A DNA stretch of 64,000 bases from Escherichia phage Pollock, in sequence record NC_027381.1; one strand, given 5' to 3'. This document shows, in pieces, positions 2,056 to 42,468 of this stretch; within the stretch, counting starts at the first letter, position 1; each line of letters opens with the position of its first letter. The notes beneath the pieces are model-generated. The model had not been told where the DNA came from. It did no database searches and saw only the letters and a program-made list of their open reading frames with translations. The position numbers were made by a program, and so were the translations under genes.

Positions 2056-2250
2056 TTGGAGGTAGGTATGAAGATATTAGCAGTGTTTCTATTGTTCTTA
2101 TTACTGCTTAGTAATGTATTACTGGAAGTACTTGATAAGGATACAGTGCAATATCAACAACAAATGGAATGCATTAAGAAGAAAATATCTCATGGCATTC
2201 CACGTAGTTCAATCCAGTTAACAGACAGTTCTTGTAAGGTGATTAAATGA
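2056..2250 (+). CDS. Small membrane or secreted protein, 64 aa
   Basis: N-terminal hydrophobic stretch ILAVFLLFLLLLSNVLL. Confidence 0.35.
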   Translation: MEVGMKILAVFLLFLLLLSNVLLEVLDKDTVQYQQQMECIKKKISHGIPRSSIQLTDSSCKVIK

Positions 2251-2426
2251 GTATCTTTATTGTAGTTTTATTTTTCTTTCTTCTTCTCCCTTCTTTTAGA
2301 AGATTAGTATTTAAAGCACTTCGTGCTCTTCTCAGAGTATTTGGATTTGTTTTATTTATTCCAGTAATTATATGTACTGTTATTTATGCATCAATAAAAG
2401 AAGCAAATCATAAAAGAAGATATTAA
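2247..2426 (+). CDS. Small hydrophobic protein, 59 aa (hand-called, below ORF-track cutoff)
   Basis: ATG overlapping the upstream stop (ATGA); product largely hydrophobic (IFIVVLFFFLLLP, FGFVLFIPVIICTVIY). Confidence 0.3.
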   Translation: MSIFIVVLFFFLLLPSFRRLVFKALRALLRVFGFVLFIPVIICTVIYASIKEANHKRRY

Positions 2427-2795: not shown

Positions 2796-3035
2796 ATGTC
2801 AAAGAAACCTAAATCACTTAAACTGCAAGAAGTTAAATTAGGAGATGTTCCTGATTATTTAGTTACTTATAGTCGTGTAGACCGTATCTGGGGAGTACAT
2901 ATTAATGGTACTTCTGTATATATTCTTAAACGATTAGTAGGTAAAAAGTACATGTATTATGTAGGTAGTCGTTATTTTAAGACACTACGTAATGCAATAT
3001 TTAGTGTTGTATTAGGAAATTCACTTCCTTTCTAG
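2796..3035 (+). CDS. Hypothetical protein, 79 aa
   Basis: ORF with AAGGA upstream; no recognisable domain. Confidence 0.35.
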   Translation: MSKKPKSLKLQEVKLGDVPDYLVTYSRVDRIWGVHINGTSVYILKRLVGKKYMYYVGSRYFKTLRNAIFSVVLGNSLPF

Positions 3036-3043
3036 GAGAAGTA

Positions 3044-3217
3044 TTGAACCAAGAATTAATACTTATTCTCTCATCTATAAGTAAATCAAAACTTTGGTGT
3101 AATTGTTATCCTATAGCATGTACTGGAGTACATTGTTTTCATTGCGTTTTGTATGAGGATATCCAACCTAGTATGTATATTGCTAAAATTTTAAAAATAG
3201 GTGAGAGAATACTATGA
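3044..3217 (+). CDS. Small Cys-rich protein, paralog family member (TTG start, hand-called)
   Basis: Translation LNQELILILSSISKSKLWCNCYPIACTGVHCFHCVLYED; AGGAG about 7 nt upstream of the TTG; stop overlaps the next paralog start. Confidence 0.4.
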   Translation: MNQELILILSSISKSKLWCNCYPIACTGVHCFHCVLYEDIQPSMYIAKILKIGERIL

Positions 3218-3390
3218 ATAAAGAATTGATAGCTATTCTTAATTATATAGAATCATGTCCAAATTTGTGTATTCACCTAACTCCACATATTGCTTGTAAT
3301 AATATTTCATGTACTTGTTGTCCTATGTTTAGAGTAATTAGAAGAACTTACTTTAAAGACATAGCAAAAGTAGTAGAAAGAATAGTATGA
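3214..3390 (+). CDS. Small Cys-rich protein, paralog family member (hand-called, 58 aa)
   Basis: Translation MNKELIAILNYIESCPNLCIHLTPHIACNNISCTCCPMF...; ATGA overlaps with both neighbours. Confidence 0.45.
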   Translation: MNKELIAILNYIESCPNLCIHLTPHIACNNISCTCCPMFRVIRRTYFKDIAKVVERIV

Positions 3391-3602
3391 ATCAGGAATT
3401 AATACTTATTCTTAAATCTCTGTGTAATATAGAAGATTACTCAATAAGAGGAATTCTATGTACAGTCATAATAGCAAAACCAAATGAAATAGGATGTGAA
3501 CACATATCATGTAGTAATTGTTATTTTGTTAGAACAGGGCCTGTAAAACACGAATATAAATTAAAAATTAGAGAAACAATTGAGAACTTTAAAACAATAT
3601 GA
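3387..3602 (+). CDS. Small Cys-rich protein, paralog family member
   Basis: MNQELILILKSL N-terminus; CEHISCSNCYF Cys cluster; 4-nt overlap with the next paralog. Confidence 0.5.
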   Translation: MNQELILILKSLCNIEDYSIRGILCTVIIAKPNEIGCEHISCSNCYFVRTGPVKHEYKLKIRETIENFKTI

Positions 3603-3805
3603 ATAAGGAATTATTATTAATAATTCAATCACTAGTTAATTTAATTTATCTTTATCATAAGAATATGCTTTGTAAAGAAATAAGAGGAAAAGCTCCGAAA
3701 TTACACTGTATCGGTGTAGAGTGCGCTAATTGCTATTATTCTTTGTCTTCTCCTGTAGAAAAAAGATATGGCTTAAAGATAGAAACCACCATTAAACAAT
3801 TCTAA
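3599..3805 (+). CDS. Small Cys-rich protein, paralog family member
   Basis: MNKELLLIIQSL N-terminus; CIGVECANCYY Cys cluster. Confidence 0.5.
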   Translation: MNKELLLIIQSLVNLIYLYHKNMLCKEIRGKAPKLHCIGVECANCYYSLSSPVEKRYGLKIETTIKQF

Positions 3806-3827
3806 TTCTCTTTGTCGCTTCGCTCCT

Positions 3828-3852
3828 CTGCCTTCGGCAGTTCTGGGGTAAT
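3828..3852 (+). promoter_or_regulatory. Hairpin promoter-like motif copy 4
   Basis: ctgcc-TTC-ggcag followed by ttctggggtaat; about 30 nt upstream of macro-domain ORF 3870. Confidence 0.45.
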
Positions 3853-3869
3853 TTCATTTAGAGGTACTT

Positions 3870-4373
3870 ATGTTAGAAGCTCGCGGTAATATGCTTGAGA
3901 TGGATTGTGATGCTCTATGCATTACTACTAATGGATTTGTTAAAAGCAATGGTGCATCAGTTATGGGTGCAGGTATTGCTAAACAAGTTCGAATAGCTAT
4001 TCCGGGAATTGATAAGATTTTAGGACAGAAAATTGCTCGTGAAGGCAATAACGTTCATCCAATCATTAACCATAATAATATCTGGATAGTATCCTTTCCT
4101 GTTAAACCAATAACTGAAATCAGTAATGGGAGTAACTTCGTAAAACATAAATATTTCCCTGAAGGGACAACAGTTCCGGGATGGGCATGTAAAGCGAATA
4201 TCAACTTGATAGTACGTTCCTGTCATCAGTTAGTAAAACTAGCTAATCAGTATGGTTGGCAGAAAGTATTACTACCTAGACCGGGATGTGGTGCTGGAGA
4301 ACTTAACTGGAATTATGTGAAAAAGGTTATCGAACCTTTATTAGATGACAGATTTATTGTCTGTACTTATTAA
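3870..4373 (+). CDS. Macro-domain-like protein (putative ADP-ribose binding or hydrolysing)
   Basis: N-terminal DALCITTNGFVKSNGASVMGAGIAKQ resembles the macro-domain DA-x-V-N-A-A-N ... G-G-G-V motif region; C-terminal LLPRPGCGAGEL resembles the second glycine-rich loop. Confidence 0.5.
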   Translation: MLEARGNMLEMDCDALCITTNGFVKSNGASVMGAGIAKQVRIAIPGIDKILGQKIAREGNNVHPIINHNNIWIVSFPVKPITEISNGSNFVKHKYFPEGTTVPGWACKANINLIVRSCHQLVKLANQYGWQKVLLPRPGCGAGELNWNYVKKVIEPLLDDRFIVCTY

Positions 4374-4380
4374 AATATTT

Positions 4381-4587
4381 ATGAAAGATGAATTAATCAT
4401 CATTTTAAATGAAATATGGTCATTACCAGAATACCAAAATATACGTGGTCCTAAGGAAGAATTATGTAGAAGAATAACATGTACCGGAGTTCACTGTACA
4501 AATTGTCCTCTTGGTTATTTCTTAAAAGACGAAGATTACGTCTCTCAAATCCATAAAATATTGGAAGTCATTAATCATGAAATATGA
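4381..4587 (+). CDS. Small Cys-rich protein, paralog family member
   Basis: MKDELIIILNEI N-terminus; CTGVHCTNCPLGYF Cys cluster (same CTGVHC as ORF 3044). ORF track begins at 4345; ATG 4381 after the macro-domain stop is the likelier start. Confidence 0.5.
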   Translation: MKDELIIILNEIWSLPEYQNIRGPKEELCRRITCTGVHCTNCPLGYFLKDEDYVSQIHKILEVINHEI

Positions 4588-5500
4588 AACTCAACTCCTG
4601 ATTGAATCTATGTTCAACCGTCATCAAGAACGTGAACTCATTAGAAATGAATTAAGAAGTTCACCTGAAATTATGGAGTTAGTTAATGCTGCTGTTAGTA
4701 AAGCATTGGAATGGGTTAAAGGAGATTACTTTGAAAGTAAGAATAAACGTTTAGCTTTATTAGATACCAATATTTTAGAAGATTTTTATATTGATGTTGC
4801 TGGTTCATTGGCTCAGTTTGGTAAAGCTAAGTATACCCAAGTAGTAGGTATGGTGTCTGGGATGATAACTACTATGTCTCAGAAAGAGGCTATACGTACT
4901 GCTGGCGAGTTAATTTCATTAGCAGCTATGGTAGACCTAGTTGATGTGATTCCTGCGTCTATGAGCATTACAGGCTCTATGGAATTGGTTTCTCGTATTC
5001 AACTTGAACCAAAAACATTAGAACTGATTGACCAGTATCAGTATCTTCCTCCAATGATTGTTCCACCTGAACCAGTTAAATCAAATACTGGTAGTGGATA
5101 CCTGTCTATTAAATGGGATTCGTTAATTCTTAAAAAGAATCATCATGAACATGATATCTGTTTAGATAATATCAATAGATTCAATTCTGTAGCATTTTGT
5201 CTGAATGAACGAGTTATCCGTAATATTCGAGATAATCGTAAACATCTGGATAGTGCTAAAGCAGATGAGACTGCTGATGAGTTTAAAGCACGAGTAGAGT
5301 CATTCCTAAAAATGGAAAAAGAATCTATGAAAGTATTTGCAATGCTCATCAATGAAGGAAATAGATTTTATCTAACTCATAAATATGACAAACGAGGACG
5401 TACTTACTGTCAAGGTTACCATGTCTCCTACCAAGGTAATACGTATCGTAAAGCTATTCTTGAATTAGCTGATAAAGAAATAGTACCTATTGAGGAATAA
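4577..5500 (+). CDS. Phage RNA polymerase II subunit 1 (N-terminal portion of a T7-like RNAP; N4 RNAP II small-subunit analog)
   Basis: C-terminal DKRGRTYCQGYHVSYQGNTYRKAILELADKE aligns with T7 RNAP DWRGRVYAVSMFNPQGNDMTKGLLTLAKGK; upstream of the catalytic subunit ORF as in N4-like phages. Confidence 0.7.
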   Translation: MKYETQLLIESMFNRHQERELIRNELRSSPEIMELVNAAVSKALEWVKGDYFESKNKRLALLDTNILEDFYIDVAGSLAQFGKAKYTQVVGMVSGMITTMSQKEAIRTAGELISLAAMVDLVDVIPASMSITGSMELVSRIQLEPKTLELIDQYQYLPPMIVPPEPVKSNTGSGYLSIKWDSLILKKNHHEHDICLDNINRFNSVAFCLNERVIRNIRDNRKHLDSAKADETADEFKARVESFLKMEKESMKVFAMLINEGNRFYLTHKYDKRGRTYCQGYHVSYQGNTYRKAILELADKEIVPIEE

Positions 5501-5502
5501 TT

Positions 5503-5739
5503 ATGGCTGAATTATCTAAACCAGAACAACTCATTAAGATTACGTTATTACTCCGTAATATTCCAAATGAGTTAGATACGCATTTTTGTAGTACTCATCC
5601 TGCATGTGAAAAATTATGTGGACCTAAACATGATAAAAGTAAATGTGCTTTATTTACATGCTCTGAAGAAGAGATTAAGAAAACTATCTTTGGATTAGAT
5701 GCAGCAGGGAGAATGTTAGGAATTATCCCTGATGAATAA
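5503..5739 (+). CDS. Small Cys-rich protein, 78 aa (divergent)
   Basis: Multiple Cys (CSTHPAC, CGPKHDKSKC, FTC); lies between the two RNAP subunit genes. Confidence 0.4.
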   Translation: MAELSKPEQLIKITLLLRNIPNELDTHFCSTHPACEKLCGPKHDKSKCALFTCSEEEIKKTIFGLDAAGRMLGIIPDE

Positions 5740-5926
5740 AGAATTAGTTTTAATCCTTAAAGAAATAAAAAGAGTATCTGAAACTTCTAAACATGGATGT
5801 ACTGGTAGTAAATTTAAAGAATTATTTCGTTGTTTAAATGTATCTTGTGGAGTATGTATATTAAATAATATACAAAATCCAAAAAAGTATAATTATCAAA
5901 TATTCTCTATTCCAATAAATCTATGA
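5732..5926 (+). CDS. Small Cys-rich protein, paralog family member
   Basis: MNKELVLILKEI N-terminus; CLNVSCGVC cluster. Confidence 0.5.
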   Translation: MNKELVLILKEIKRVSETSKHGCTGSKFKELFRCLNVSCGVCILNNIQNPKKYNYQIFSIPINL

Positions 5927-6135
5927 ATAAACAATTTATTCTTATATTGGATTCAATTAGGGATTGGGCAAAATCAGAATTTTCTTGTAAGGGTGGACTG
6001 TTAACTATACGCGATACATATATAAATGAACATTTATGTGGGTATTTATGTACCTCATGCCCTATTGTTCAAGTAAGAAGTAAACAACTTTATCCCGACC
6101 AAATCATTCAAACTTCCTCTCAACTAATTAAGTGA
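5923..6135 (+). CDS. Small Cys-rich protein, paralog family member
   Basis: MNKQFILILDSI N-terminus; CGYLCTSCP cluster; 4-nt overlap with the RNAP catalytic subunit start. Confidence 0.5.
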   Translation: MNKQFILILDSIRDWAKSEFSCKGGLLTIRDTYINEHLCGYLCTSCPIVQVRSKQLYPDQIIQTSSQLIK

Positions 6136-7370
6136 GACTCAATATGCAACAGTTTACAGCTTTCCAATATATCAAATTAGATATTGCTAACTCTTTTGGT
6201 TTAGATAAAGAACTGTTTGATGACCGTATCAAATGGTTTGAAGAAAACAAAAATAATTTAGCTAATTTGGTAAATGATGCAGATGAACCTGCTCAATTCT
6301 ACGCAGGTATGTTGGCATACCAAGATGTACTGGAAGGTAAACCAATTGGTTATTTAGTAGGTATGGATGCTACTGCATCTGGATTGCAGTGTATGGCTGC
6401 ATTAACTGGCTGTAAGACTACCGCTGAAACAGTAAATCTTATTGACCCTAATTGTCGTAAAGATGCTTATACCGATGGCTATAAAGTCATGGGAGAACTA
6501 CTTAATGGCAAGATTGATAAGATTGACCGTAAGGATTTGAAGGGAGCTATTATGACTCACTTCTATGGTTCTCAAGCAAATCCTAGAAGTGTATTTGGTG
6601 AAAATACTATAGAACTACAAAAGTTCTATGAAACTGTTCAAACCATTGCTCCCGGTGCAAATATGCTACGAGATGATTTAATCAATCTCTGGCAACCAAA
6701 AGCACTTCAACATTTATGGGAATTACCAGATGGCTTTACTGCTGTCGTTAAAGTAATGACCATGAAAGAAGAAAGCTTTGAAGTAAATGAATTAAATAGT
6801 TCCTTTACTCATCGTTATTGGGTTAATGAGGGTCAGGATTTTGGTTTATCACTTGCTGCTAATGTTGTTCACTCTGTAGATGGGATGGTAGTACGTGAGA
6901 TGAATCGTCGTGCTAACTACGATGAAACCAAAATACAGCGTGTATATGAGCTTCTGACTGGTTCAAACAATACAGGTATTGTGGACTATACAGTAGATGA
7001 TAAACAGCTTAAGAGAGCTATTGAGCTTGCTGAAAGACATCGTTTTGTTTCTACTGTGATGATTGAGTTCATTAACCATGAGAATGTACATATGATTCCT
7101 TTATGGATTAAGAACCAACTCATCGAAATTATTGAGAAGATGTTGGCTCATAAACCATATGCATTAATTGCAATTCATGATTGCTTTAAATGCCATCCTC
7201 TGTATATGAATAACGTGCGTCAGAACTACATTGATATCTTTGCTCAGATTGCAGATAGCACAATGCTTCAAGCAATTGCATCTCAAATCTCTGGTAAACG
7301 TATTCCAGTAACTAAACTGTCTAATGACCTTTCAACATACATTCGTAAATCCAACTACATGCTTAGTTAA
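6132..7370 (+). CDS. Phage RNA polymerase II catalytic subunit (T7-like single-subunit RNAP palm and fingers)
   Basis: Motif A-like GMDATASGLQC (T7 DGSCSGIQH), motif B-like RKDLKGAIMTHFYGS (T7 KRSVMTLAYGS), NVVHSVDGMVVRE (T7 NFVHSQDGSHLRK), motif C-like IAIHDCF (T7 LIHDSF). Confidence 0.85.
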   Translation: MRLNMQQFTAFQYIKLDIANSFGLDKELFDDRIKWFEENKNNLANLVNDADEPAQFYAGMLAYQDVLEGKPIGYLVGMDATASGLQCMAALTGCKTTAETVNLIDPNCRKDAYTDGYKVMGELLNGKIDKIDRKDLKGAIMTHFYGSQANPRSVFGENTIELQKFYETVQTIAPGANMLRDDLINLWQPKALQHLWELPDGFTAVVKVMTMKEESFEVNELNSSFTHRYWVNEGQDFGLSLAANVVHSVDGMVVREMNRRANYDETKIQRVYELLTGSNNTGIVDYTVDDKQLKRAIELAERHRFVSTVMIEFINHENVHMIPLWIKNQLIEIIEKMLAHKPYALIAIHDCFKCHPLYMNNVRQNYIDIFAQIADSTMLQAIASQISGKRIPVTKLSNDLSTYIRKSNYMLS

Positions 7371-8101: not shown

Positions 8102-8224
8102 AATCTGGTTAAATGGGCGTCATTATGACGTCCATAATGTCTTTGATAAAGGGGAATATATTCAAGCTTACTTATGGACAGGCTGGGTATATTCCCCCTG
8201 CTTATTTAATAAAGAGGATTATAT

Positions 8225-8476
8225 ATGGCATTTAGTAAATTATGGAAAGCTATCCTAGTATTCACTTTTTTGTTAATTGGTAGTGCTTATAGTAAGGAAC
8301 ACACATTAAATCCTATATCTGAAGAAATGGATGTTCAAAGAATCCATGATGATGAAGCAGGCGTTACTTGCTGGATTTTATATGTTCCTAATACATCTAG
8401 ATATCAAATGCCTGACCATTACAGTATGAGTTGTTTACCTAATACTGTAATCAAACCAGAAGCAATTAAAAAATAA
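8225..8476 (+). CDS. Small secreted protein, 83 aa
   Basis: N-terminal signal-peptide-like stretch AILVFTFLLIGSAYS. Confidence 0.4.
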   Translation: MAFSKLWKAILVFTFLLIGSAYSKEHTLNPISEEMDVQRIHDDEAGVTCWILYVPNTSRYQMPDHYSMSCLPNTVIKPEAIKK

Positions 8477-8502
8477 ATAATTAAAACTTATAACTTCATA
8501 CT

Positions 8503-8532
8503 AAGCCTCCTTTTATGGAGGCTTTTAGTTTT
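8503..8532 (+). terminator. Rho-independent terminator
   Basis: aagcctcc-ttttat-ggaggctt stem-loop followed by a T-rich run. Confidence 0.65.
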
Positions 8533-31828: not shown

Positions 31829-31855
31829 AAGCCTCTTCCATGAGGCTTTTTCTTT
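31829..31855. terminator. Bidirectional terminator between convergent transcription units
   Basis: aagcctc-ttccatg-aggctt stem-loop flanked by an A-run upstream and a T-run downstream; sits between the plus-strand block and the minus-strand vRNAP gene. Confidence 0.7.
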
Positions 31856-34800
31856 TAGTACAGACTTACTAAAGGATGGATAGTAAATCCATTTAGTGCT
31901 GTACCCATTCCAACGTTATAACTTAAGCTACCTGTTGCTAAGTTTGCTTCCATGATATTAGGTAATCCAGATTCAGCAGTATTACCAAACATAAGGAATA
32001 ATGCTCTTAATGGGTTTTCCCTAATCGTTCTTAAGATAATTTTCTGAATACGAATCTTATAGTTTAAGAACCATGTTAAACCAATAGCATCCAAATAGAA
32101 TCTGGTGCGACTAGGTAATATGTCATAGTTCACAAACTCATCCATTACTCTATTCAATGCACTATCTTTATCCATTGGATTACGAGAACGAGTAGTTAAA
32201 TGCTTATATAGAGAGTATTTAGCAACGAAGTCACCATACTGAATTGAACGATTCAATAAGAAGTACACATTACTATCTCTAGATAAAGTGATTTCTTTAG
32301 CAACACGTTTAACACTATCTGGAATACCAGAAGTGTACTCATCCATTTTAGTAAGTAGTTTATCCTTCAAAGAGTAATCATCCTGCTGACCTAAATCTTC
32401 TGCGATAGTTGGTAACAAACCAGCTTTAATTAAATCAGCTACTGGGTTACGAGCTTGAGAATCTTTAAGTTCAGATATTTTTCTCTGATACTCTTCAGCC
32501 ATTCTTGGATTATGGTTTACAGCCAGATAATGAGAATACTCGTTAATTAATTTCTCATTTCTTCTGTACTCCTCAGCAGCCAGTACAGCAGTAGACATAT
32601 CTTTAGCCATAGTAATTGGGCTAATACCTACCGTAGCCAAATGTACCATGTTAGATAAGATATTCCCTGCGGATACAACTACTGAACGAACTACAATCCA
32701 GTCCTTCATTTCCTTCACAAATTCCATCAAACCACGTTCACCAAGTCTTAGATAGCGTGCAGCATTCTTACCTAAGAATGTTTCTGCAATGTTTACAAAT
32801 GCTTTCTGAAACTCTTTAGAGAAATTGGTTTGACCAGTCCATAGATTCAGTACAGAAGGTTCACGATAACCAAATGCATTATTCAGTAAATCCTTACGTA
32901 CTTTAATTTTCCCATTAGGCCAAATACGTTTGGCTGCTTCTTTCATCTCAATAGGCATCAGTTCATAGATTTCTTTTAACTGATGGTCTGTAGAGTTTTC
33001 ATCTATAGTGATGTATTGATATGCTTTTCCTTCTCTAGCATCCTTCTTATAGATTTCACCAAGTCTTTCTAAAAGCATCTCATTGTATTTGGCAGCCTGA
33101 ATCTCTTCAGCAATACGACCTTCCCAAGCAGCTAATACTTTAGTGAAGTCATTATCTACATTTAATTGAGCTTCTCTATTAGCTCTTGGCATTTGGTACG
33201 AGTATCCCATTATTGAACCAGCGCGGTTTAAAACAGGCTGCATCTGTCCATCATAGTTCTGAGGCATTGGTTTAGAAGCATCAAATAAATCATTGATAGC
33301 AGCTTGTTTATTAGCTGATACCTTGTTCTTTTCTGATGTCTTCCATGCACCCGGGGTCATAGAACCATTAACACTTCTGCCTGTAATTGGGTTTACTCCA
33401 CCTACGGTGCTTTGCAGGGTACTCATTACACCAGCAATCCAACGAGGTTCACCACCATTGTTAGAATGGTAGTAGTACATTGGAGTTTTATCTGTATCTG
33501 CTGGGTCACGTTTAACTTGAGCACCTCTGGTATAGCCTCTACGAGATAAGCTTGGTTCATCCTTAATGGATGCAATAATTACTTTTTTGTTTGGGTCAGT
33601 GATAGTAGGAGTAAATCCTTTAACTGCTGCCAAAGAATAGTTATTACCAGATTTAGCTAACTCAGCGCCTTTAAGGCTTTCATAGTATTTGAGAGTAAAA
33701 GTCATACCATTATTATCTGGTTCACCTTTAGTCATCTCTCTACTGATTACATTACTTACTGTTTCTTTATCTGCTTGAGATAATTCAGTAAGAGCACTCA
33801 ATGAAGCCAAGGTATCAATTAACTGAGTAGCTATTTCAACAGCATCATTTGATGGTCTTTCTCTACCAGTACCAATCAAACGTGCAATAGCAGCAGCATT
33901 TGATAATTGGTATGCCAGTGGAGATACTCCATGCACCATCTGTTTAGCTAAACCATGAGCAGATTTAATATAGAATGCAGAGTTTTGAGCACCTGCTTTT
34001 TGTAACTGAGATTCTATTAAATCTATCTCTTTAGCTAACTCATTTGGATTAGTTAATAATTCATTTAAACGAACCAAGTCATACCCATTAGCAAACAGGT
34101 ATGCCATATCTGTATTGGCAACTACTCTCTGAATAGCCTCTTTCTCATTTTGGTTTAAAGAAACAAACGTTTTTTCAATCATACCCGGAACCATCTCACG
34201 AATAATCTGACGTGCTCTATCAGCAGCCATATTTTTCTGAGTTAATAAGGTATGAATACTACTGTTGGTTTCATTAGAACCAATAAATTCATTAATGAGT
34301 TCAGCGATAGTACCTAGTTTTCCATCCTGATGAATGGTCATATAAATGTGAGTTATAGCCTCACGTACATCATGAGCATCTTGTTCATTAAATACTGCTG
34401 CTCCAACAGTAATACCAAATGCTACAGACTTAGGTACTTTCTTCTCTACTTTGCTTAACTGCTTACGAATAGAGTTACCAAAAGCTCTCAACCTATCTTG
34501 AGTAGCTTCAGTGATTTCTTCTGTACCTCTACCAATTCTGGTAAAGAGATTATCTCTTGCCTGACTATCTACATGACTAATGTTCTTAGCCAGTTTAGAT
34601 AAACGAGAAGCAATATTTGTATCTCTTAAAGATTTAGTAGCTAAGCCAGATAACCAAGTAAGAATCATATTAGTTAAATCACCAATACGTTCTCTAAGAG
34701 ATGTAGCCTGATTCTGTCTGGTACGTTTAACACTAATTTGAGACAGCTTATTTCTTAATTGTTCATTGGTTTCAGCCAATGCAATAAAGTTAGCAAGTCT

Positions 34801-37800
34801 GTTAGTACGACCAGTAGCATCAGTAGTAATAGCTGTATTGCCAAATACTGCATCATATCTTTGTTTAGCTAATGCCATTTCATTAGCAGAACGATTGTTA
34901 GGGTCAGTTAAGAAATCTTCTACTTTTAAGTTTTCTCTGGCTTGCGAGTACAAACTACGTGCAACCAGAACACTTGGAGAAAAGTTCTCTAACCCATATT
35001 TCATAGATACTTGCAGCATCTTGAATACAAATGCTTCTTTCTCACTCATGTTAAAACCATGAGCAATTAATGCATTTGGTGAGTCATCAATTTCTGGGTC
35101 AATGCTATCTACCAAAAGTTTATCTTGGTAATGCTCTAAACCAGATATTTGCTGACCAGTATTTTTAATTACTTTAATGATATTGGATTGTAAGTAATCC
35201 AGAGTATCTGTTAGATGATTTACATGTTCCTGAGATGCTTTACCTGCATCCAATTTATTAAATAATGTTTCTGCATCTAATCTATTAATGTTGTTAGCAT
35301 TTTGCTGAGCATAGCTTGTTGTATCTCTGGATTTAACAGGATTGGTAGCATCAGCCAAAGCAACGGTATGGCCTAACAAACGAGTCCAGTAAGAAGTAAT
35401 GTCTGGATTAGAGCCAATAGCAAACAGACGTTTAATAGATTCAGCTAATTGCTTAAGTACCTTTGTTACAGTTCCTGTAATAGTTTTTTTAGTCATTGCA
35501 TCAATCATCCTTGGGTTAACAAGACCCCATGCAATGAATTCAGCAGTAGCCTGAGCCATATCACCAGAAGCAATATGATTATTAATCAAGTCTACAACAC
35601 TATCTGTTTCAGGATTCGTACTAGAATACTCATTAACAAATTTAGTCATGAGTGCTTCTATTGAAGCAATCTCTACTTTTTGAGCAGGAGTTAATGCTTC
35701 TGGATTACTGTAATAATTGTGAACAGCATTAGCAGTAGCAGCATGAATTAACTCATGCATTACAGTCTCAATAGACTGAGAACCAATATAGATATTCTGT
35801 CCCTGTGTAAGCCCTAAGAATGAGTTATTAAACTCAACCTTAGTATCAGGTGTCATTTCCTGTTGAACGGCTGAGAGAGCTTCTGGAGAGCCTACATACA
35901 CATTAATATCTTCAGGAATAGAGTTAGCAATCTTATCTAATACGAAGCTAGTAATTCTATTTTGACGAGAAGGTAAAGATTTAGCTGCTTCTTTAATAGC
36001 AGCAATCACATCACCTTTAGACAGTACTTTAATTCCATCATGTCCTGATACATTTCTTCCATTTTTAGCCAATGCTTCAATCATTTGACGAGTAGGAGGA
36101 ATAGTTACTCTACCTTTAGGGAGAGATACTGATTCCATAGTAGGAAGTTCTGTATTAGCAATTAACTGTTCTAAAGGAGTTCTGGTATCAATTGCTTCTT
36201 TATCAGTCTGCTTACCATTCTGAACATTGAATGGAATATTAGCCCCGGTCATTTGGTTAATAGAAGTAACTGCTTCTCCTCCTAATAAACCTTGTTTAAT
36301 AGCAGTTTGAGTAGCAGCTTCTTTTTTAAGAAGTGTAGTAAATGCTTCTAACACTTCTGGGCTAGTAGGTGAATTGGTTTCATCTGCTCCAATCATTTCC
36401 ATAATTCCACGGAAAGATTGTTCCAAACGTGTATCTGCATCTGGACCTAATTCTTCAGTTAGATTTACTCCTTCCATCGCTTGCTCAAAACGATTAGTAA
36501 AATCTTGAAGTAAATCAAATTCATTCCAACTTTGCAGAACACCTTGGTTAATAGCTTGAGAACCAGTATCTAAATGAGCTACAGCATTAATATAACCATC
36601 AAATACGTTAAGGGCATTGTTAGGGTTAATATCACGAGCAATAGCCTGCATAGCTGCTTCTACAGATTGAACCAATAAAGGCATTACACGAGTACCTGGT
36701 TCAGTATAAGTAGGAGTATCTACACCAAAAGTAGCACGACGCATTTTACCATCCAGATTTCTACGTCCTCTGGATTCCATACGATAAATATCAAATGTGA
36801 CTCTACCTTCTTCACTCAGAAGAATACCTTCATTTAATTTAGCTGCATCAGTATTACCAGCAGTAAACCAAGAGTTAAAGATAGGCATCTGAGTAATCAG
36901 TTCTCTCTTAATCTCGTTATATTGCTGCTGAGAAAGAGATTCATACTTAGATAATTTACCTGCTTCTCTAAGTTCTTTTTCTTTAGCTTCTACTACTTTA
37001 TTCCAACGAGACATGAATACTTCATGCATTACAGCAGCAGCATAAACCATCATCTTGCCGCGATTGATTACAGTACCAAATTCATTAGCAATTGATTCAT
37101 TTACTGCTGCACCAATACCAATTTTGATGTTTTGGGTAATTGCTTCAATCTGCTCGCTAGTAAACTCAAATTTAGTTACATCTTTTCCTAAATTGATAGG
37201 AGCACCAATTTTTACCCAAGAACCATTACGAAATACTTGAGCAGTAGTTAATTCATTAGTTGTATTGGTCAAATCATTAATATGAGCAATTGCAGCATCT
37301 CTATCTTCCTGATTAGTAGCTGAATCTACTGCTCTTAATGCTTCTGTGATTGCTTCGTAATAACCATTAGCAATACCCATAGCAATCTTTCTATTGATTG
37401 CATTAGCACCACCAGAATAAACAGTAACTGTTACTGGATTTTTAAGTAATCCTCGACCTATTTGGATTGGATGTTCTACATCCTCTCCTTCAACAATATT
37501 TACATCACCAATTAGTTTTGATGCAGCAAGAGTTACCCTTACCTGATTTTTCAAGCGTTCAATATCTCTCATCTCTTTTTGTTGGAATTGTCGAGATTTA
37601 TTTTTAAGGGCAGCTAACCTGTTAGGGATATTACTGTAAGCATCCATCATGTTGTTGATGTATTGCTGTGAGCCAGCAGCAGCAGTTTTATACAGGTCTA
37701 AGAATCCCGGTTCTTCAGCAGCATCATTGTATAGACGGTCTGATTGCCCATAGAACAAACCACCTTTCTCTAACTTATTCAGTAAATCTTGGTTCACGTC

Positions 37801-40800
37801 TTTTAAACCAAGCTGAACAATAGAGTTAAATGGTCCATTAGTTACACCATCAAGCTCCAGCATCACATGAGTCTGGAATGAGGATTTACCTTGTTCTACT
37901 GCTAATTCATATTGAGCTTGTGCATATAAAGCATGGAGTGTTTTAGTTTTCTCCTTACCTGCTTTTACAGCTTCTAAAAGAACCTCTGCATCAGCATCAC
38001 TAATTGAATCTTGGTTTTCAGCAGCTTTTAGAATATTGATAGCATCTCTAAATAAACCAGTACTGATAGCTTTATTTAGCTTATCTCTGGCAGTCTCAGA
38101 AGAGAGTTTATCAACAGCAATATCCAATCCTTGAGCAATAGCATAATCAAGAAATGCACCATGTTGAGGATTGTTGAGTTCAATAGTAGAAGGTTCAACA
38201 GTAATTAATTCACGATGTAATTTAGCTGACTGAGGGTTTAAATCCCCTGAGTTAAGCATCATACGGAAGTTACTAATTACGTTATATGCAAAATAAATAG
38301 GTGTATTAGCCAGAGGTAATCCAGCTTCTGACATACGAGTTAAACCGTTAATCAGAGTATTAATATCTCTTTCAATAGTACGGTTAGAACCTTGAATGGA
38401 TTTCAGATGAGCACCATTAGCATTCTCTTCTGATTGAATGCCTAACATTCTACCAATCCATTCTGTACCTAATTTATCCAGCATAAGGTCATGAAGACCC
38501 ATGTTGATATAATGAGGTTGTTTACTGGCTTTGTTACGTGCAGCAAGCATCTTTTCAGGAATATCCTGACCACCACCATTTTTAACTTTAGTGCTCTGAC
38601 CTTTTGGTGGAGTACCAAAGTATGCTCCTGCTTTTTCTCTCTGAGGATTAGTTAATTGACCTAAGAGGTCATTGGAATCCTTCATTAAGTCTACTAAACG
38701 TTTAGCAGCTTCAGATTCTTCATTCATACGAATGAATATACGAGAGTTTTTAATGTTGGATTCATTTACTTTAGTAGAACCAACAGCAGCTAATTCACTG
38801 TTTTTAACAACAGATTCTTGAACCAGATTAGCATTAATCATTACGTTCAATACTTCAGTTGCTAGTGCTTTAGATACAGCATCACGAACAGAGATAGGAG
38901 TATTAGGGTCAGCATTAATACCTAAGATTCCAAAAATCTCTCTGCTTAAATAATCAATAACATTTTGCCGGTCTGTACCTACATTACGTAATAAATCTGT
39001 TTGCTCTACAGTAGGTTTAGTTTTGTTATCTAAACCAAGAATATCCATTACTGTACGGTCATCATTGAATGTAGTTTCAACTGCATTACGTACAAACCAC
39101 TGCATCATACCAGCAGTCATTGCTTCAATTACTGGCTGAGGTAAGAAGTAAACATTTTCACCATTGATATTTCTTACTTCACTAAAATATTCGACAGGGT
39201 ATGTTTCCCAGAAGATACGTTGACCTTCAGGAGTTAATTTACCCCAAGATTGAATTAACGATTGTTCAATAGCAGGGACTAAACCAGCAAATTGACGTAG
39301 TACTTTTACTTCTTTCTCTGTTACTTGTTCTGGTTTAATAAATCCTTTAAACAGATTTTGAATCTGAGTAATAGGATTAGAACCATTGGTAAAAATGTTA
39401 TTAAGTCTTCCAGAGAAATTAGAAGTTCTCAGGAATGCAGAACGTTTACCTGTAGGTTTAAACCATTTTTTAACTTGGTTAGTAGCCTGATAGTTCTTAT
39501 CTGCTTCTGAAGTAGATTTAGCATCAGAACGTACAGTTTCTGATTGCAGACTACTCAGAATATCGAAATTAACACCTTTATCTAAACCAAGTTCTAATTG
39601 AGACTCATCCATTAAATCAGTCTCAACTTCAGTTGGTTTTTCCTGAATCTGAATTTCAGATTCAACTACATCTGGTTTCTCAAATAGTTCTCCTTGAACT
39701 GGAGTACTAGTAGGAGCTTCTGTAACAGCTTCTGGCTGTGTTTCTACAGTCTCAGAAGGTGTTTGTACCTGTTCTTCAGAAACCTGTGCAGAAGCCTCTA
39801 TAGGAGCTTCTGATTCTTGAGTTGAGACTAATTCCTCTGTAGCAACTGGAGCAGATTGTGCTGGCACAGATACAGGTTTACCATCTACTAATTGACTAGT
39901 AATGGTATGTGCTTGACGAACAGCATTAGCATCATTACGAATTTCTTTGATTAATCCTTTAGAACGTACCGGATGATACGTCATAGGATTTCCATCTAAA
40001 GATAAATATGGTTGTCCTGTAGTTGGATTAATTACTTCTACAGGTTGATTACCAGTAAAGTTTTGAGCAGCCTGTTCAAATGCATTAGCTTTAGTTTCCA
40101 TGTGCTCTGCAAAACGGTTTAAATGGTCTAATAAACCTTGAGCACGAGCAGTATCCCCTAAAGATAATGCACGGAAGATACCTTGCTGATACTGTTGAAT
40201 ACCAATAAATCCATCAGAACCTTTACGTACATCTTCTCCTACTTGGCTCATTGCTTTACCAGTAGCAGAGATAATTTTTAATTTATCTACATCCTGCTGG
40301 TTCAAACCAATGGTTTCTGCTGAATTAACTAAACGGTCAGCAACTTCTGGAGTAATAGAAGATGCATCTAAATTCATTTGAGCCAGAACAGATTTAATGT
40401 TCTTTTGTACTTCAGGAGATTTATAAGTTTCTGGAGTAATTTCAGAAGGTAAAGACTCCATAATCTTATTCATTTCTTCTGGAGTCAGTCTGAAGCTTTC
40501 AGCAGTAGTTTTAACTGCTTGTACATCAGGATGGTTCAGCACAGCATTGATATTATCAATAGCTGTTTGATACTGAGCTTTCTCTTCTTCTGGTGCAACT
40601 TCCATCTGTGCTTGAATTTGAGGTAAAGCTTCCTCATAAGCAGAGATAACATTATTACCTACAACAGCTAAATCTCTACGAGAAGCTTCATCCAAATTAC
40701 GTTCTTTAATTGCACGGGAAATTCTCAAAATAGAATCTGGAGAACTAATTTCCTCTTCAGGAATAGCTTTAAATACTTCTTTAGCAGCAGGTTCAGTAAC

Positions 40801-42468
40801 AGCATCAACAGCTTTAACTACAGTTGGTTCTGCTACTGCTTCAGCATCTGTTTGTTGTACTGTTTGTTTAACTGATTCATTAGCAGCAGATACAGTATTC
40901 CTAAAAGATTGTGCTCTGGATTCTGCTTTACGGGCTTCTCTTGCTTCAAATGCTTCACGACCTTGTTGAGCACCTTCTTGAATTGCTCTAGGTGTTTCAC
41001 TGATAGCCGAGCCAAAAGCACCCATACCCGCACCAGCAATAGCAGACTCAACAGCGTTTGAACCAATGTCTTCAGCAAGGGACTGAGATTCATCAGCAGA
41101 AGTCCGTATGCCGAGGTTAGAAGCAAATTGACCAGTAATCCCTTGGGAGGTTTCTTCAATAGTTTCTTTGAAAGCATTGTTAAGAACTCGTGAGGAAGCA
41201 CTAAAGAATCCCGTACCTTCAAGTAAGGAAGGAGTGAATATACGAGATTCAAATGGAGCAGCAACCTTACCAGTCAGAGCACCAAGAGTACCTGCTACCA
41301 AAGCAGTGACATTACCTGTTTGAGTACGTACTTGTCTTCTGGCTTGCTCTGGAGACATACCATCAGCAATTAAATCACGATACATAGGTGATTTTTCTGC
41401 TAATTGCTTATCAGTCATTCCATCAATCTGGTCTAATGTTTGTTGGGCATTAGAACCTGCTTCTTGGAAACCTACATAACCAACCAATGCTCTTTCAGCA
41501 GCATCCTGAAGACGTTTTCTACCATACTGAGTTGAAGCTAGCTTGGTAGCAAAATCTGCACCATATTCTTCAGCTAATTGTTTAAATGCTCCACGAGAAG
41601 CAATCTTACCTACTAAACCACCAGTTAATATATCTGGAGCAGATTCAGCAATAAGTGTAGTTAATGCTCCCGGAGCACCACCATATTGTTCAGCAGTATT
41701 AACAAACTGACGTAATTGTTCTTTAGCCCCTGCAACTAAAGGATTATCACCTTTAGCTATATCAGCAGCTTCACGAGCTTCAGCACCTTGTTTAAATCTC
41801 TCTTTTTCTGCTTCAATTACAGATTGTTCATATTGAACACGCGGAGAATATTGAGAACGTTGTTCTTCAACATACTGTTTTAATGGTACATCAATACCCA
41901 CTTGTTCTAATAAAGTAGGTTGTCCTAATTGTTCTTCTTGACCAGTAACATTAGCAATTAAATCTTGAGTATTTTGTAATGCTAAGTTACCCAAACCAGT
42001 AACAAATCTAGCTGTATTACCTGCCCATATCTGTGCAGCATTACCTACATCAGATAATTCTATAGGAGCATTTTCAAATATATCTGTATTGGCTTGAGCA
42101 ATATTTAAAGACAGTTTGTCTCTAGCTGCCTGAGGACCATATTTCTGCTGTAATGCAGATAAAGGCATATCTCTTAAATCAGCCAAATATTGCTCAGAAG
42201 GATTAGTTTGAGTAGCAGTAGTAGTAGTTCTTTGTCCAGATAGCATCTGATTCATCTGTTCTCTTGTATATTTAGGACCAGATTCTGCTAACTGGATTGC
42301 TTGCTGTGCTCTTTGATACTGTGGAGAACCTACAGCAAAGTCTATTTCTACCCCGGGTACTGGAGTACCTAACTCTAATTTCTTCTGTTGAGTAGCTATA
42401 TTTAATTGTTGTGTTTTTTGTAAGGCAGCATTAGCTAATTCTTGCTGTTTCTCAAATCCGGTGGCCAT
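31855..42468 (-). CDS. Virion-encapsidated RNA polymerase (vRNAP; N4 gp50-like), 3537 aa
   Basis: Single 10.6-kb ORF; a protein of about 3500 aa adjacent to the virion-protein block is the hallmark of N4-like podophages; synteny with the downstream late genes matches N4. Confidence 0.85.
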   Translation of the reverse strand: MATGFEKQQELANAALQKTQQLNIATQQKKLELGTPVPGVEIDFAVGSPQYQRAQQAIQLAESGPKYTREQMNQMLSGQRTTTTATQTNPSEQYLADLRDMPLSALQQKYGPQAARDKLSLNIAQANTDIFENAPIELSDVGNAAQIWAGNTARFVTGLGNLALQNTQDLIANVTGQEEQLGQPTLLEQVGIDVPLKQYVEEQRSQYSPRVQYEQSVIEAEKERFKQGAEAREAADIAKGDNPLVAGAKEQLRQFVNTAEQYGGAPGALTTLIAESAPDILTGGLVGKIASRGAFKQLAEEYGADFATKLASTQYGRKRLQDAAERALVGYVGFQEAGSNAQQTLDQIDGMTDKQLAEKSPMYRDLIADGMSPEQARRQVRTQTGNVTALVAGTLGALTGKVAAPFESRIFTPSLLEGTGFFSASSRVLNNAFKETIEETSQGITGQFASNLGIRTSADESQSLAEDIGSNAVESAIAGAGMGAFGSAISETPRAIQEGAQQGREAFEAREARKAESRAQSFRNTVSAANESVKQTVQQTDAEAVAEPTVVKAVDAVTEPAAKEVFKAIPEEEISSPDSILRISRAIKERNLDEASRRDLAVVGNNVISAYEEALPQIQAQMEVAPEEEKAQYQTAIDNINAVLNHPDVQAVKTTAESFRLTPEEMNKIMESLPSEITPETYKSPEVQKNIKSVLAQMNLDASSITPEVADRLVNSAETIGLNQQDVDKLKIISATGKAMSQVGEDVRKGSDGFIGIQQYQQGIFRALSLGDTARAQGLLDHLNRFAEHMETKANAFEQAAQNFTGNQPVEVINPTTGQPYLSLDGNPMTYHPVRSKGLIKEIRNDANAVRQAHTITSQLVDGKPVSVPAQSAPVATEELVSTQESEAPIEASAQVSEEQVQTPSETVETQPEAVTEAPTSTPVQGELFEKPDVVESEIQIQEKPTEVETDLMDESQLELGLDKGVNFDILSSLQSETVRSDAKSTSEADKNYQATNQVKKWFKPTGKRSAFLRTSNFSGRLNNIFTNGSNPITQIQNLFKGFIKPEQVTEKEVKVLRQFAGLVPAIEQSLIQSWGKLTPEGQRIFWETYPVEYFSEVRNINGENVYFLPQPVIEAMTAGMMQWFVRNAVETTFNDDRTVMDILGLDNKTKPTVEQTDLLRNVGTDRQNVIDYLSREIFGILGINADPNTPISVRDAVSKALATEVLNVMINANLVQESVVKNSELAAVGSTKVNESNIKNSRIFIRMNEESEAAKRLVDLMKDSNDLLGQLTNPQREKAGAYFGTPPKGQSTKVKNGGGQDIPEKMLAARNKASKQPHYINMGLHDLMLDKLGTEWIGRMLGIQSEENANGAHLKSIQGSNRTIERDINTLINGLTRMSEAGLPLANTPIYFAYNVISNFRMMLNSGDLNPQSAKLHRELITVEPSTIELNNPQHGAFLDYAIAQGLDIAVDKLSSETARDKLNKAISTGLFRDAINILKAAENQDSISDADAEVLLEAVKAGKEKTKTLHALYAQAQYELAVEQGKSSFQTHVMLELDGVTNGPFNSIVQLGLKDVNQDLLNKLEKGGLFYGQSDRLYNDAAEEPGFLDLYKTAAAGSQQYINNMMDAYSNIPNRLAALKNKSRQFQQKEMRDIERLKNQVRVTLAASKLIGDVNIVEGEDVEHPIQIGRGLLKNPVTVTVYSGGANAINRKIAMGIANGYYEAITEALRAVDSATNQEDRDAAIAHINDLTNTTNELTTAQVFRNGSWVKIGAPINLGKDVTKFEFTSEQIEAITQNIKIGIGAAVNESIANEFGTVINRGKMMVYAAAVMHEVFMSRWNKVVEAKEKELREAGKLSKYESLSQQQYNEIKRELITQMPIFNSWFTAGNTDAAKLNEGILLSEEGRVTFDIYRMESRGRRNLDGKMRRATFGVDTPTYTEPGTRVMPLLVQSVEAAMQAIARDINPNNALNVFDGYINAVAHLDTGSQAINQGVLQSWNEFDLLQDFTNRFEQAMEGVNLTEELGPDADTRLEQSFRGIMEMIGADETNSPTSPEVLEAFTTLLKKEAATQTAIKQGLLGGEAVTSINQMTGANIPFNVQNGKQTDKEAIDTRTPLEQLIANTELPTMESVSLPKGRVTIPPTRQMIEALAKNGRNVSGHDGIKVLSKGDVIAAIKEAAKSLPSRQNRITSFVLDKIANSIPEDINVYVGSPEALSAVQQEMTPDTKVEFNNSFLGLTQGQNIYIGSQSIETVMHELIHAATANAVHNYYSNPEALTPAQKVEIASIEALMTKFVNEYSSTNPETDSVVDLINNHIASGDMAQATAEFIAWGLVNPRMIDAMTKKTITGTVTKVLKQLAESIKRLFAIGSNPDITSYWTRLLGHTVALADATNPVKSRDTTSYAQQNANNINRLDAETLFNKLDAGKASQEHVNHLTDTLDYLQSNIIKVIKNTGQQISGLEHYQDKLLVDSIDPEIDDSPNALIAHGFNMSEKEAFVFKMLQVSMKYGLENFSPSVLVARSLYSQARENLKVEDFLTDPNNRSANEMALAKQRYDAVFGNTAITTDATGRTNRLANFIALAETNEQLRNKLSQISVKRTRQNQATSLRERIGDLTNMILTWLSGLATKSLRDTNIASRLSKLAKNISHVDSQARDNLFTRIGRGTEEITEATQDRLRAFGNSIRKQLSKVEKKVPKSVAFGITVGAAVFNEQDAHDVREAITHIYMTIHQDGKLGTIAELINEFIGSNETNSSIHTLLTQKNMAADRARQIIREMVPGMIEKTFVSLNQNEKEAIQRVVANTDMAYLFANGYDLVRLNELLTNPNELAKEIDLIESQLQKAGAQNSAFYIKSAHGLAKQMVHGVSPLAYQLSNAAAIARLIGTGRERPSNDAVEIATQLIDTLASLSALTELSQADKETVSNVISREMTKGEPDNNGMTFTLKYYESLKGAELAKSGNNYSLAAVKGFTPTITDPNKKVIIASIKDEPSLSRRGYTRGAQVKRDPADTDKTPMYYYHSNNGGEPRWIAGVMSTLQSTVGGVNPITGRSVNGSMTPGAWKTSEKNKVSANKQAAINDLFDASKPMPQNYDGQMQPVLNRAGSIMGYSYQMPRANREAQLNVDNDFTKVLAAWEGRIAEEIQAAKYNEMLLERLGEIYKKDAREGKAYQYITIDENSTDHQLKEIYELMPIEMKEAAKRIWPNGKIKVRKDLLNNAFGYREPSVLNLWTGQTNFSKEFQKAFVNIAETFLGKNAARYLRLGERGLMEFVKEMKDWIVVRSVVVSAGNILSNMVHLATVGISPITMAKDMSTAVLAAEEYRRNEKLINEYSHYLAVNHNPRMAEEYQRKISELKDSQARNPVADLIKAGLLPTIAEDLGQQDDYSLKDKLLTKMDEYTSGIPDSVKRVAKEITLSRDSNVYFLLNRSIQYGDFVAKYSLYKHLTTRSRNPMDKDSALNRVMDEFVNYDILPSRTRFYLDAIGLTWFLNYKIRIQKIILRTIRENPLRALFLMFGNTAESGLPNIMEANLATGSLSYNVGMGTALNGFTIHPLVSLY

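Follow-up and report, generated by a model that had tools for sequence, protein, structure and literature searches.

What do the stop-start overlaps that chain together the small early genes of Escherichia phage Pollock signify? In the 64,000 nucleotides (nt) of its genome that we analyzed (NC_027381.1, referred to as the window herein), several short open reading frames (ORFs) in the left, early part of the genome run into one another through the tetranucleotide ATGA. A preliminary description took this to imply translational coupling and stoichiometric co-expression of Cys-rich paralogs with each other and with the catalytic subunit of an RNA polymerase (RNAP). Pollock is an N4-like podophage (PMC4319500) and has been placed in Schitoviridae, Humphriesvirinae, "Pollockvirus" (PMC7650795). 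We think it fairly probable that the ATGA chains represent joints between tandemly arrayed members of one small-protein family, phrog_16571, that these joints are regenerated by recombination, and that the genes they link are probably translationally coupled. ATGA overlaps and coupling are ordinary in themselves; the interest lies in what the overlaps mark here. For comparison we used a set of seven genomes, consisting of the window and its six closest annotated relatives in the phage collection, namely the Salmonella and Shigella Ithacaviruses FSL SP-058, SP154, As2, and B2 (∼84% nt identity) and the Klebsiella Pylasviruses Pylas and KpCHEMY26 (∼77% nt identity).

Reading of the sequence found exact ATGA at 3214-3217, 3387-3390, and 3599-3602, and the first chain that had been proposed, 3044/3214/3387/3599, stands in full. 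The second, 5503/5732/5923/6132, held only in part. ATGA is present at 5923-5926, and the genes at 5503 and 5732 do overlap, albeit by 8 nt rather than four (ATGAATAA, with ATG at 5732 and TAA at 5737-5739), an overlap that the relatives share. The link at 6132 fell away, as its GTGA arises only if the first possible start codon is taken. Upstream of this chain, the gene for the small polymerase subunit (RNAP1, 4577-5500) is separated from 5503 by a 2-nt gap without overlap. The overlap geometry of translationally coupled pairs is therefore found at 3214, 3387, 3599, and 5923 (ATGA) and at 5732 (ATGAATAA), and is absent ahead of the catalytic subunit gene, RNAP2.

To place these joints against the rest of the window we used a crude gene model with 73 same-strand junctions. 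By the longest-ORF rule, 12 of the 73 are −4 junctions; five of these are GTGA/TTGA artefacts with a better ATG after them, and seven are true ATGA. Paralog-to-paralog junctions are ATGA in four of four cases, versus three of the 69 other same-strand junctions (Fisher p = 3.2e-5), the three lying at 2247, 24025, and 54200. In the seven genomes taken together, each of the 42 junctions between neighboring paralogs is an overlap, of 4 nt (22 junctions), 8 nt (9), 11 nt (5), 16 nt (2), or 20 nt (4), and not one has a gap. The ATGA overlaps are real and far beyond chance.

The genes joined in this way are members of one family. Eight paralogs are present in Pollock, at 2477, 3044, 3214, 3387, 3599, 4381, 5732, and 5923; seven of the eight match phrog_16571 over nearly the whole profile (E 8.5e-4 to 2.5e-30), and 2477 is more divergent. 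Their products of ∼60 to 80 amino acids (aa) share an N-terminal MNxELIxIL, four Cys arranged as C-x(n)-C-x4-C-x2-C, and a C-terminal Y-x3-I. When 146 sequences were aligned, mean column identity was 17%, and M1, N2, L5, I8, the four Cys, and the Tyr were at least 90% conserved. A family hidden Markov model (HMM) found 12 copies in SP-058, 13 in SP154, 12 in As2, 10 in B2, seven in Pylas, and eight in KpCHEMY26, all in the same early region. Three to four extra paralogs (cassettes A-C) lie in the Ithacaviruses where Pollock has window positions 2056-2426, this left array being absent from Pollock; here, at 2247-2426, Pollock has a gene with predicted hydrophobic segments that is ATGA-linked to the conserved gene 2056-2250.

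By tblastn the family occurs in only 15 phage records, all from the Pollock/Ithacavirus/Pylasvirus clade. A profile search of 1.84 billion cluster representatives returned 158 clusters at 50% identity, nearly all of them stand-alone proteins of 55 to 90 aa, and the one metagenomic match that we examined has a similar overlap chain on a contig encoding an N4 gp2-family protein (PF26984). A few distant relatives carry two to four Cys-motif copies in one polypeptide. Four such metagenomic proteins (P0096, P0148, P0168, and P0171), each with two to four copies of C..C-G-[VI]-x-C-x2-C-[IP]-L, match the related family phrog_14146, which suggests that the Cys module occurs more widely in phages as a repeat domain. 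One long, multi-stretch profile match, P0038, was spurious, being an immunoglobulin/cadherin-repeat protein. We found no convincing member in N4; the best, gp13, was marginal (E = 0.02 in a tiny search) and was not accepted. A literature search returned no paper describing the family. It appears to be an undescribed, hypervariable family of seven to 13 copies per genome, confined to the Pollock/Ithacavirus/Pylasvirus branch of the N4-like phages.

The anatomy of the joints shows where the overlap comes from. Codon 2 is AAT or AAC in 55 of 70 copies, which yields ATGA; since a start of ATG-AAY supplies a +1-frame TGA, the overlap is built into the family's conserved start. A ATGAATAA or ATGAATAG start adds a +2-frame stop, and the commonest first eight bases, ATGAATAA, hold one stop in each other reading frame. 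Among 69 starts, 55 have the +1-frame TGA, 38 have a +2-frame stop within 8 nt, and 31 have both. With stops in both other frames, an upstream gene in either non-identical frame ends no more than 8 nt from the next ATG. The upstream side of the joint is also patterned. The last codons often read ...GERIL and thereby encode an SD-like (Shine-Dalgarno-like) GGTGAGAG; within the 3044/3214 subgroup, GGTGAGAGAATA... encodes the C-terminal ...GERI(L/V/I) of the upstream gene and is SD-like for the next one. The 5′ ends of four to six paralogs constitute direct-repeat families D1-D3, and a further repeat of 50 nt, D4, spans the stop-start overlap itself (3193-3242 versus 3366-3415, 80% identical, spacing 173). 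In Pylas (3978-4693), an HNH endonuclease gene is ATGA-joined to the orthologue of the paralog at 4381, at a position where the Pollock ATGA (4584-4587) opens only a 5-codon ORF, and the paralog joint hence seems to accept foreign genes too.

Between the joints the genes turn over rapidly. Compared with SP-058, the anchor genes interleaved with the paralogs (gp2-like, gp8-like, macro-domain, RNAP1, 5503, and RNAP2) are 77 to 92% identical in aa sequence, whereas the paralogs are 27 to 52% identical to their best counterpart. Among the four Ithacaviruses, synonymous divergence (dS) of the anchors is 0.02 to 0.3, and the ratio of nonsynonymous (dN) to synonymous divergence (omega) is mostly 0.0 to 0.3. 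Their paralog cassettes are bimodal, being either near-identical or 41 to 76% identical with dS of 0.35 to 1.3 and dN of 0.17 to 0.6; in the diverged cassettes omega is mostly 0.2 to 0.7 and ∼1 for one cassette. That dS is raised along with dN points to replacement by old alleles and not only to fast point mutation, and omega below 1 indicates that the paralogs are real coding genes.

Breakpoints fall at the joints. A multiple DNA alignment shows that one cassette is missing from B2, where the gene left behind is chimeric, with its junction within the conserved 5′ ∼30 nt; SP154 and As2 contain an additional cassette whose insertion point is precisely the ATG that follows ...GGTGAGAGAATATT. Pairwise identity profiles switch between segments of 94 to 99% and of 11 to 69%. 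For SP-058 versus SP154, a paralog ATG is no more than 45 nt away from nine of the 14 transitions, compared with an expectation of 23% (p = 0.001), and most of the others lie at the 3′ end of an array's last cassette. This pattern indicates, as the simplest reading of the cassette insertions and deletions and of the chimera, unequal and homologous recombination in the conserved joints. Recombination inside a joint would regenerate an identical overlapping junction, and the ATGA chain would thereby persist. Within RNAP2, a ∼160-nt stretch (SP-058 6880-7045) is ∼60% identical between SP-058 and SP154/As2 and is flanked by sequence at 97%; mosaic exchange appears to reach into the polymerase gene as well.

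We then considered translation at the joints. Predicted pairing with the anti-SD sequence is weaker at the paralog starts of the window (median −2.8 kcal/mol) than at 44 other starts (−5.6 kcal/mol, p = 0.03). In the first array the leader at 3044 reaches −7.3 kcal/mol and the internal starts −4.9, −1.3, and −2.7, and at 4381 and 5923 there is no pairing. Over the seven genomes the median is −3.9 kcal/mol for internal starts (n = 42) versus −6.05 for leaders (n = 28; p = 0.005), with orthologous sites that are non-independent. Local mRNA folding at paralog starts, assessed as minimum free energy and unpaired probability, did not differ from that of other genes. On this ground we rejected coupling via the unmasking of a structured ribosome-binding site, and coupling, if present, would proceed by termination-reinitiation. 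Such coupling is known to need overlaps or very short gaps and collapses at gaps of ∼20 nt (PMC10666635). The retention of overlaps in all adjacent pairs of the seven genomes despite extreme protein divergence, together with the weak internal SDs, makes coupling plausible. It is also in line with coupling that consensus scans showed no terminator-like site within the arrays, and that in E. coli, the host, four of five native ATGA pairs examined are coupled by termination-reinitiation (PMC6728339).

The explanation that we favor runs as follows. Recombination adds, removes, or swaps cassettes while re-forming the same overlapping joint; the cores of the cassettes are extremely diverged, in contrast to the conserved joints and interleaved anchor genes. 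Translation of an array would begin de novo at the strong SD of its first gene, ribosomes ending at the TGA or TAA in the next start region would reinitiate at the adjacent ATG, and internal copies with a weak or absent SD could be made in this way. The paralogs of an array would be co-expressed from one early transcript, which is co-expression and not fixed stoichiometry.

Several observations weigh against this explanation, mostly against its translational part, in which coupling within an array by termination-reinitiation is a plausible reading of joint anatomy. AT-rich unstructured leaders can initiate independently, the paralog starts are folded like those of other genes, many internal starts keep SD-like GAGAG or GGTGA motifs, and the non-independence of orthologous sites tempers the seven-genome SD comparison. 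The conserved gene ends could reflect constraint on the protein scaffold (helices 1 and 3) and not selection on the joint. Among five native ATGA pairs of E. coli, three are strictly coupled, one is ∼60% coupled, and one (bioBF) is uncoupled (PMC6728339), and the last two would caution against reading coupling from ATGA. These points bear on an alternative in which the overlaps are a by-product of compaction, inherited via duplication, with each gene initiated independently and no functional coupling. When prokaryotic genes overlap, ATGA is the commonest form (PMC6728339, PMC10666635), and it is also found at the three non-paralog junctions of the window; several internal starts have SD-like motifs of their own, their surroundings are AT-rich and no more structured than elsewhere, and bioBF exemplifies an ATGA pair that can be uncoupled. 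We nonetheless judge this alternative unlikely. Not one of the 42 adjacent joints has opened into a gap despite extreme divergence and repeated cassette turnover, internal SDs are significantly weaker than those of leaders and in some cases essentially absent (3599, 4381, and 5923), and many starts have a stop in each alternative frame no farther than 8 nt away.

Transcription bears on the remaining question of the polymerase genes. The intergenic sequence at 3813-3840 is a 28-nt element that is unchanged in the Ithacavirus and Pylasvirus relatives but for a compensatory T:A to A:T swap in the stem of its hairpin (5-bp stem, CTGCC-TTC-GGCAG versus CAGCC-TTC-GGCTG). Two further hairpins built alike (5-bp stem, TTC loop) lie at 61-73 and at 682-694, the latter identical in B2; the former is closely preceded by a homopolymer run of ∼12 C at 32-43. 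Read on the template strand, each of the three hairpins has C-GAA-G at the loop (−11A, −10G, −9C), and 11 nt downstream from the loop centre the template base is C in each, which gives predicted +1 positions of 78, 699, and 3845. They resemble the promoter rules of the N4 vRNAP (−11A/G, −10G, −8G, +1C; PMC4496689) except at −8, and are likely, from these features, to be N4-type vRNAP early promoters P1-P3. The vRNAP gene itself (3537 aa) is on the minus strand at 31855-42468. In consensus scans, which did not cover N4-type promoters, neither 3044-3805 nor 4381-7370 contained a terminator-like site, and sigma70-like sites were fewer than in shuffled sequences; from 3845 on, no terminator-like site appeared before about 8113-8524. 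If 3845 is a transcription start, the macro-domain gene, 4381, RNAP1, 5503, 5732/5923, and RNAP2 would be on one early transcript. Such a transcript would argue that these paralogs are transcribed together with the RNAPII genes, but not that they are linked to RNAP2 in translation.

That distinction matters for a second alternative, close to what the preliminary description had proposed, in which the overlaps ensure that the Cys-rich proteins and the RNAP catalytic subunit are all made at a fixed stoichiometry, for instance as parts of a shared complex with RNAPII. The early region is syntenic with N4 (gp2-like, 1607-2020; gp8-like, 2796-3035; RNAP1, 4577-5500; RNAP2, 6144-7370), and Pollock has a gp15/gp16-type pair whose syntenic genes in relatives are annotated as RNA polymerase subunits (83-92% aa identity). 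RNAP1 and RNAP2 are not adjacent in Pollock, with three small genes between them, and in every relative the paralog arrays flank and separate both genes, probably on one early transcript. A common interface is also conceivable, as the N-terminal helix is conserved in all paralogs. The start of RNAP2 speaks otherwise. The product from ATG 6144, MQQFTAFQYIKLDIANSFGLDKE, aligns from residue 1 with N4 gp16 (MQTFTAREYLKIDIANNYGLDKE) and with SP-058 (N-terminus MQQFTAF... versus MQTFTAR... in N4 gp16), and its 408 aa are those of the GenBank "RNA polymerase 2"; GTG 6132 was rejected as the start for these reasons. From the TGA of paralog 7 (6133-6135) to this ATG there is an 8-nt gap holding an SD-like AAGTGAGA of its own. 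Translational coupling of the paralogs to the catalytic subunit is hence not supported, and RNAP1 too is followed by a gap.

Nor does the composition of the arrays suit an obligatory complex. Copies vary from seven to 13, and cassettes are lost, inserted, or replaced between near-identical phages, which leaves the stoichiometric part of the proposal unsupported; reinitiation efficiency varies from pair to pair, and an overlap alone does not give 1:1 output. In N4, RNAPII is an active gp15-gp16 heterodimer, and N4 has neither the family nor a gene between gp15 and gp16. We regard fixed stoichiometry as quite improbable. The gene at 5503, a link of the second proposed chain, also proved not to be one of the Cys-rich paralogs: gp17 belongs to a separate PHROG (phrog_22821), and its comparison with the family gave an hhalign probability of 0.15%, on which we rejected it as a divergent paralog. 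It is 82 to 87% identical in all relatives with invariant H27, C29, H32, C35, C39, H43, and C48, always lies between RNAP1 and RNAP2 in the Pollock clade, and is absent from that position in N4. We consider it a candidate accessory factor of RNAPII.

The idea that the small ORFs are not genes but a non-coding repeat, their overlaps being ORF-calling artefacts in AT-rich DNA, could appeal to their shortness, to the apparent lack of 3387 and 5923 in the GenBank annotation, and to the want of a Pfam domain or structural match, but it is scarcely tenable given open frames of 57 to 81 codons that are improbable by chance in 30%-GC DNA, four Cys, an N-terminal motif, and a Tyr conserved over 146 sequences at 17% mean column identity, 158 profile-matching clusters, omega below 1 in most comparisons, insertions and deletions that are whole-cassette and frame-preserving, and the annotation of most copies as proteins in Pollock and its relatives.

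Returning to the favored account of recombination-regenerated joints, what the paralogs do may be approached through their Cys residues and their setting. We found no Pfam domain or significant structural neighbour for them, and their predicted fold is mostly helical. Curated zinc-finger thresholds were not reached (zf-RING_6, 18.7 bits versus a cut-off of 35; zf-C3HC4, 14 versus 21), and a profile search of the PDB with the family returned only a B-box at E = 0.58. A WhiB-like iron-sulfur identity was discarded, as it has no profile or fold support and the Cys spacing differs. From the early site beside the gp8-like host-takeover gene, the four invariant Cys, the variable core on a conserved scaffold, and the turnover in copy number, we weakly infer that the paralogs are metal-binding (probably zinc) early effectors acting on host or phage targets and diversified in an arms race. 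Families of this kind are prime candidates for host-takeover or anti-defence effectors.

More tentatively, and as a possibility that we hold to be distinctly less certain than the favored account, the joint may be a selected, frame-tolerant "plug-and-play" linker made up of the SD-like GAGAG in the last codons, the ATGAAYAA start with its stops in both other frames, and ∼30 nt of shared 5′ sequence. Homologous recombination between co-infecting Humphriesvirinae could then add, remove, or exchange any cassette, which would still be translated through reinitiation. Asn2, nearly invariant, would be retained because of the overlapping stop and efficient initiation and not for the protein, and the cassettes would form a repertoire of small metal-binding early effectors that diversifies rapidly against host factors or defence systems. 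In E. coli, initiation is favoured by A-rich second codons such as AAU and AAA, and an MNK start would suit this as well. The overlapping joints would offer a concrete, testable mechanism by which a repertoire can be expanded and shuffled without loss of expression.

The features of the region are collected in Table 1.

Table 1. Genes and sequence elements of the paralog arrays and their surroundings in the Pollock window
Feature	Coordinates	Strand	SD pairing (kcal/mol)	Evidence and remarks
Solitary divergent paralog, Pollock gp9, 81 aa	2477..2722	+		Family HMM E = 5e-21 (HMM built including gp9); weak phrog_32354 match
N4 gp8-like host DNA replication inhibitor; anchor, not paralog	2796..3035	+		Pfam PF25713 N4_GP8 E = 1.5e-25; 77% aa identity to SP-058
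Paralog 1, gp11, 57 aa, array 1 leader	3044..3217	+	−7.3	phrog_16571 E = 4.5e-7; TTG start behind AGGAG; GenBank-annotated
Paralog 2, gp12, 58 aa	3214..3390	+	−4.9	ATGA 3214-3217; SD-like GGTGAGAG within upstream C-terminal codons
Paralog 3, 71 aa, apparently unannotated in GenBank	3387..3602	+	−1.3	ATGA 3387-3390; phrog_16571 E = 4e-11; SD weak
Paralog 4, gp13, 68 aa, array 1 last gene	3599..3805	+	−2.7	ATGA 3599-3602; phrog_16571 E = 3e-26
Junction-spanning direct repeat, copy 1	3193..3242	+		Last ∼21 nt of paralog + ATGA + first ∼29 nt of next
Junction-spanning direct repeat, copy 2	3366..3415	+		Repeat family D4
Intergenic element with hairpin 3828-3840; candidate N4-type vRNAP early promoter	3813..3840	+		Predicted +1 at 3845; unique in window
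Macro-domain (ADP-ribose binding) gene; anchor	3870..4373	+		Annotated in Pylas/KpCHEMY26; 88% aa identity to SP-058
Paralog 5, 68 aa from family-consensus start	4381..4587	+	0	phrog_16571 E = 2.5e-30; GenBank gp15 begins at ATG 4345
RNAPII small subunit, N4 gp15-like, RNAP1	4577..5500	+		RNA polymerase subunit annotation in relatives; 92% aa identity to SP-058
gp17, 78-aa Cys/His-rich protein; not paralog	5503..5739	+	−6.2	phrog_22821 E = 6e-54; own SD GAGGA
Paralog 6, gp18, 64 aa	5732..5926	+		phrog_16571 E = 2e-28; 8-nt overlap ATGAATAA with 5503 gene
Paralog 7, 70 aa, apparently unannotated in GenBank	5923..6135	+	0	ATGA 5923-5926; family HMM E = 2e-25 (built including paralog 7); phrog_16571 E = 8.5e-4
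RNAPII catalytic subunit, N4 gp16-like, RNAP2	6144..7370	+	−5.2	ATG 6144; SD-like AAGTGAGA; 408 aa = GenBank "RNA polymerase 2"

The map suggests corrections to the Pollock annotation, namely two apparently unannotated paralogs, a family-consensus start for gp15, and a likely start for a DUF4326 gene. The exact products of 3387-3602 and 5923-6135 are absent from the protein collection, and their flanking genes (gp12/gp13 and gp18/RNAP2) have consecutive accessions; both paralogs were apparently left out of the GenBank record. The former has a near-identical metagenomic homologue, P0032, and the latter is 44 to 47% identical to its positional orthologues; gp9 is 41 to 44% identical to its As2/B2 counterpart. 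For gp15, ORF 4345-4587 is a 100% match to CPT_Pollock15; from the family-consensus start, the gene sits behind a 7-nt gap after the macro-domain gene stop, overlaps RNAP1 by 11 nt, and ends in ATGA (4584-4587). The DUF4326-like gene at 697-1035 probably starts at ATG 724 (SD AAGGAG), as annotated in Shigella phage B2, and the ATG farther upstream, at 697, includes position 699, the predicted transcript start. At 3044-3046, Pollock has TTG where all Ithacavirus and Pylasvirus relatives have ATG, a single A to T change, with the strong AGGAG kept; this TTG might reduce expression of the leader as well as that of any gene strictly coupled to it.

Four known systems help to place these arrays. 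Like small Cys4 zinc-binding domains of the B-box or RING type, the paralogs have four conserved Cys including a C-x2-C knuckle, a ∼60-aa domain, and sub-threshold RING/B-box similarity; unlike them, they reach no curated threshold and have a mostly helical predicted fold, and their metal binding is a prediction. With the N4 early region and its RNAPII (gp15/gp16 heterodimer with cofactors gp1 and gp2; Lenneman & Rothman-Denes 2015, PMC4496689), Pollock shares the order gp2-like, gp8-like, RNAP1, RNAP2, the early site, and hairpins of vRNAP-promoter geometry. In contrast to N4, where no family member is detectable and nothing lies between gp15 and gp16, Pollock-type phages insert three to four small genes there.

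The ATGA termination-reinitiation pairs of E. coli (Huber et al. 2019, 2023: PMC6728339, PMC10666635) are the closest parallel for the joints as such, with co-directional ATGA or 8-nt overlaps, apparently one transcript, and downstream SDs that are often weak. The Pollock genes differ from them in being fast-evolving tandem paralogs of variable number and not subunits of a defined complex, in that their coupling is predicted, and in that the overlap is encoded by the family's own first codons (ATG-AAY-AA). For the turnover of cassettes, the parallel is with the promoter-early stem-loop (PeSL) cassettes by which T4-type phages shuffle early genes as modules within hyperplastic regions (Arbiol et al. 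2010, PMC2839356; Comeau et al. 2014, PMC4122927). There too, the early region is a hot spot at which genes come, go, or are replaced between close relatives, with core genes on either side, and breakpoints coincide with a short conserved flanking sequence, as they do here in the B2 chimera, the SP154/As2 cassette, and nine of 14 transitions. At the Pollock joints, consensus scans found no promoter-like or stem-loop motif, and there is no intergenic DNA. The Pollock cassettes are not members of the PeSL class, since their linker is a coding overlap (C-terminal codons, ATGA, N-terminal codons) and not an intergenic promoter/terminator or stem-loop motif. The genes shuffled in Pollock-type phages all belong to one family, and the linker between them preserves translational, not transcriptional, linkage.

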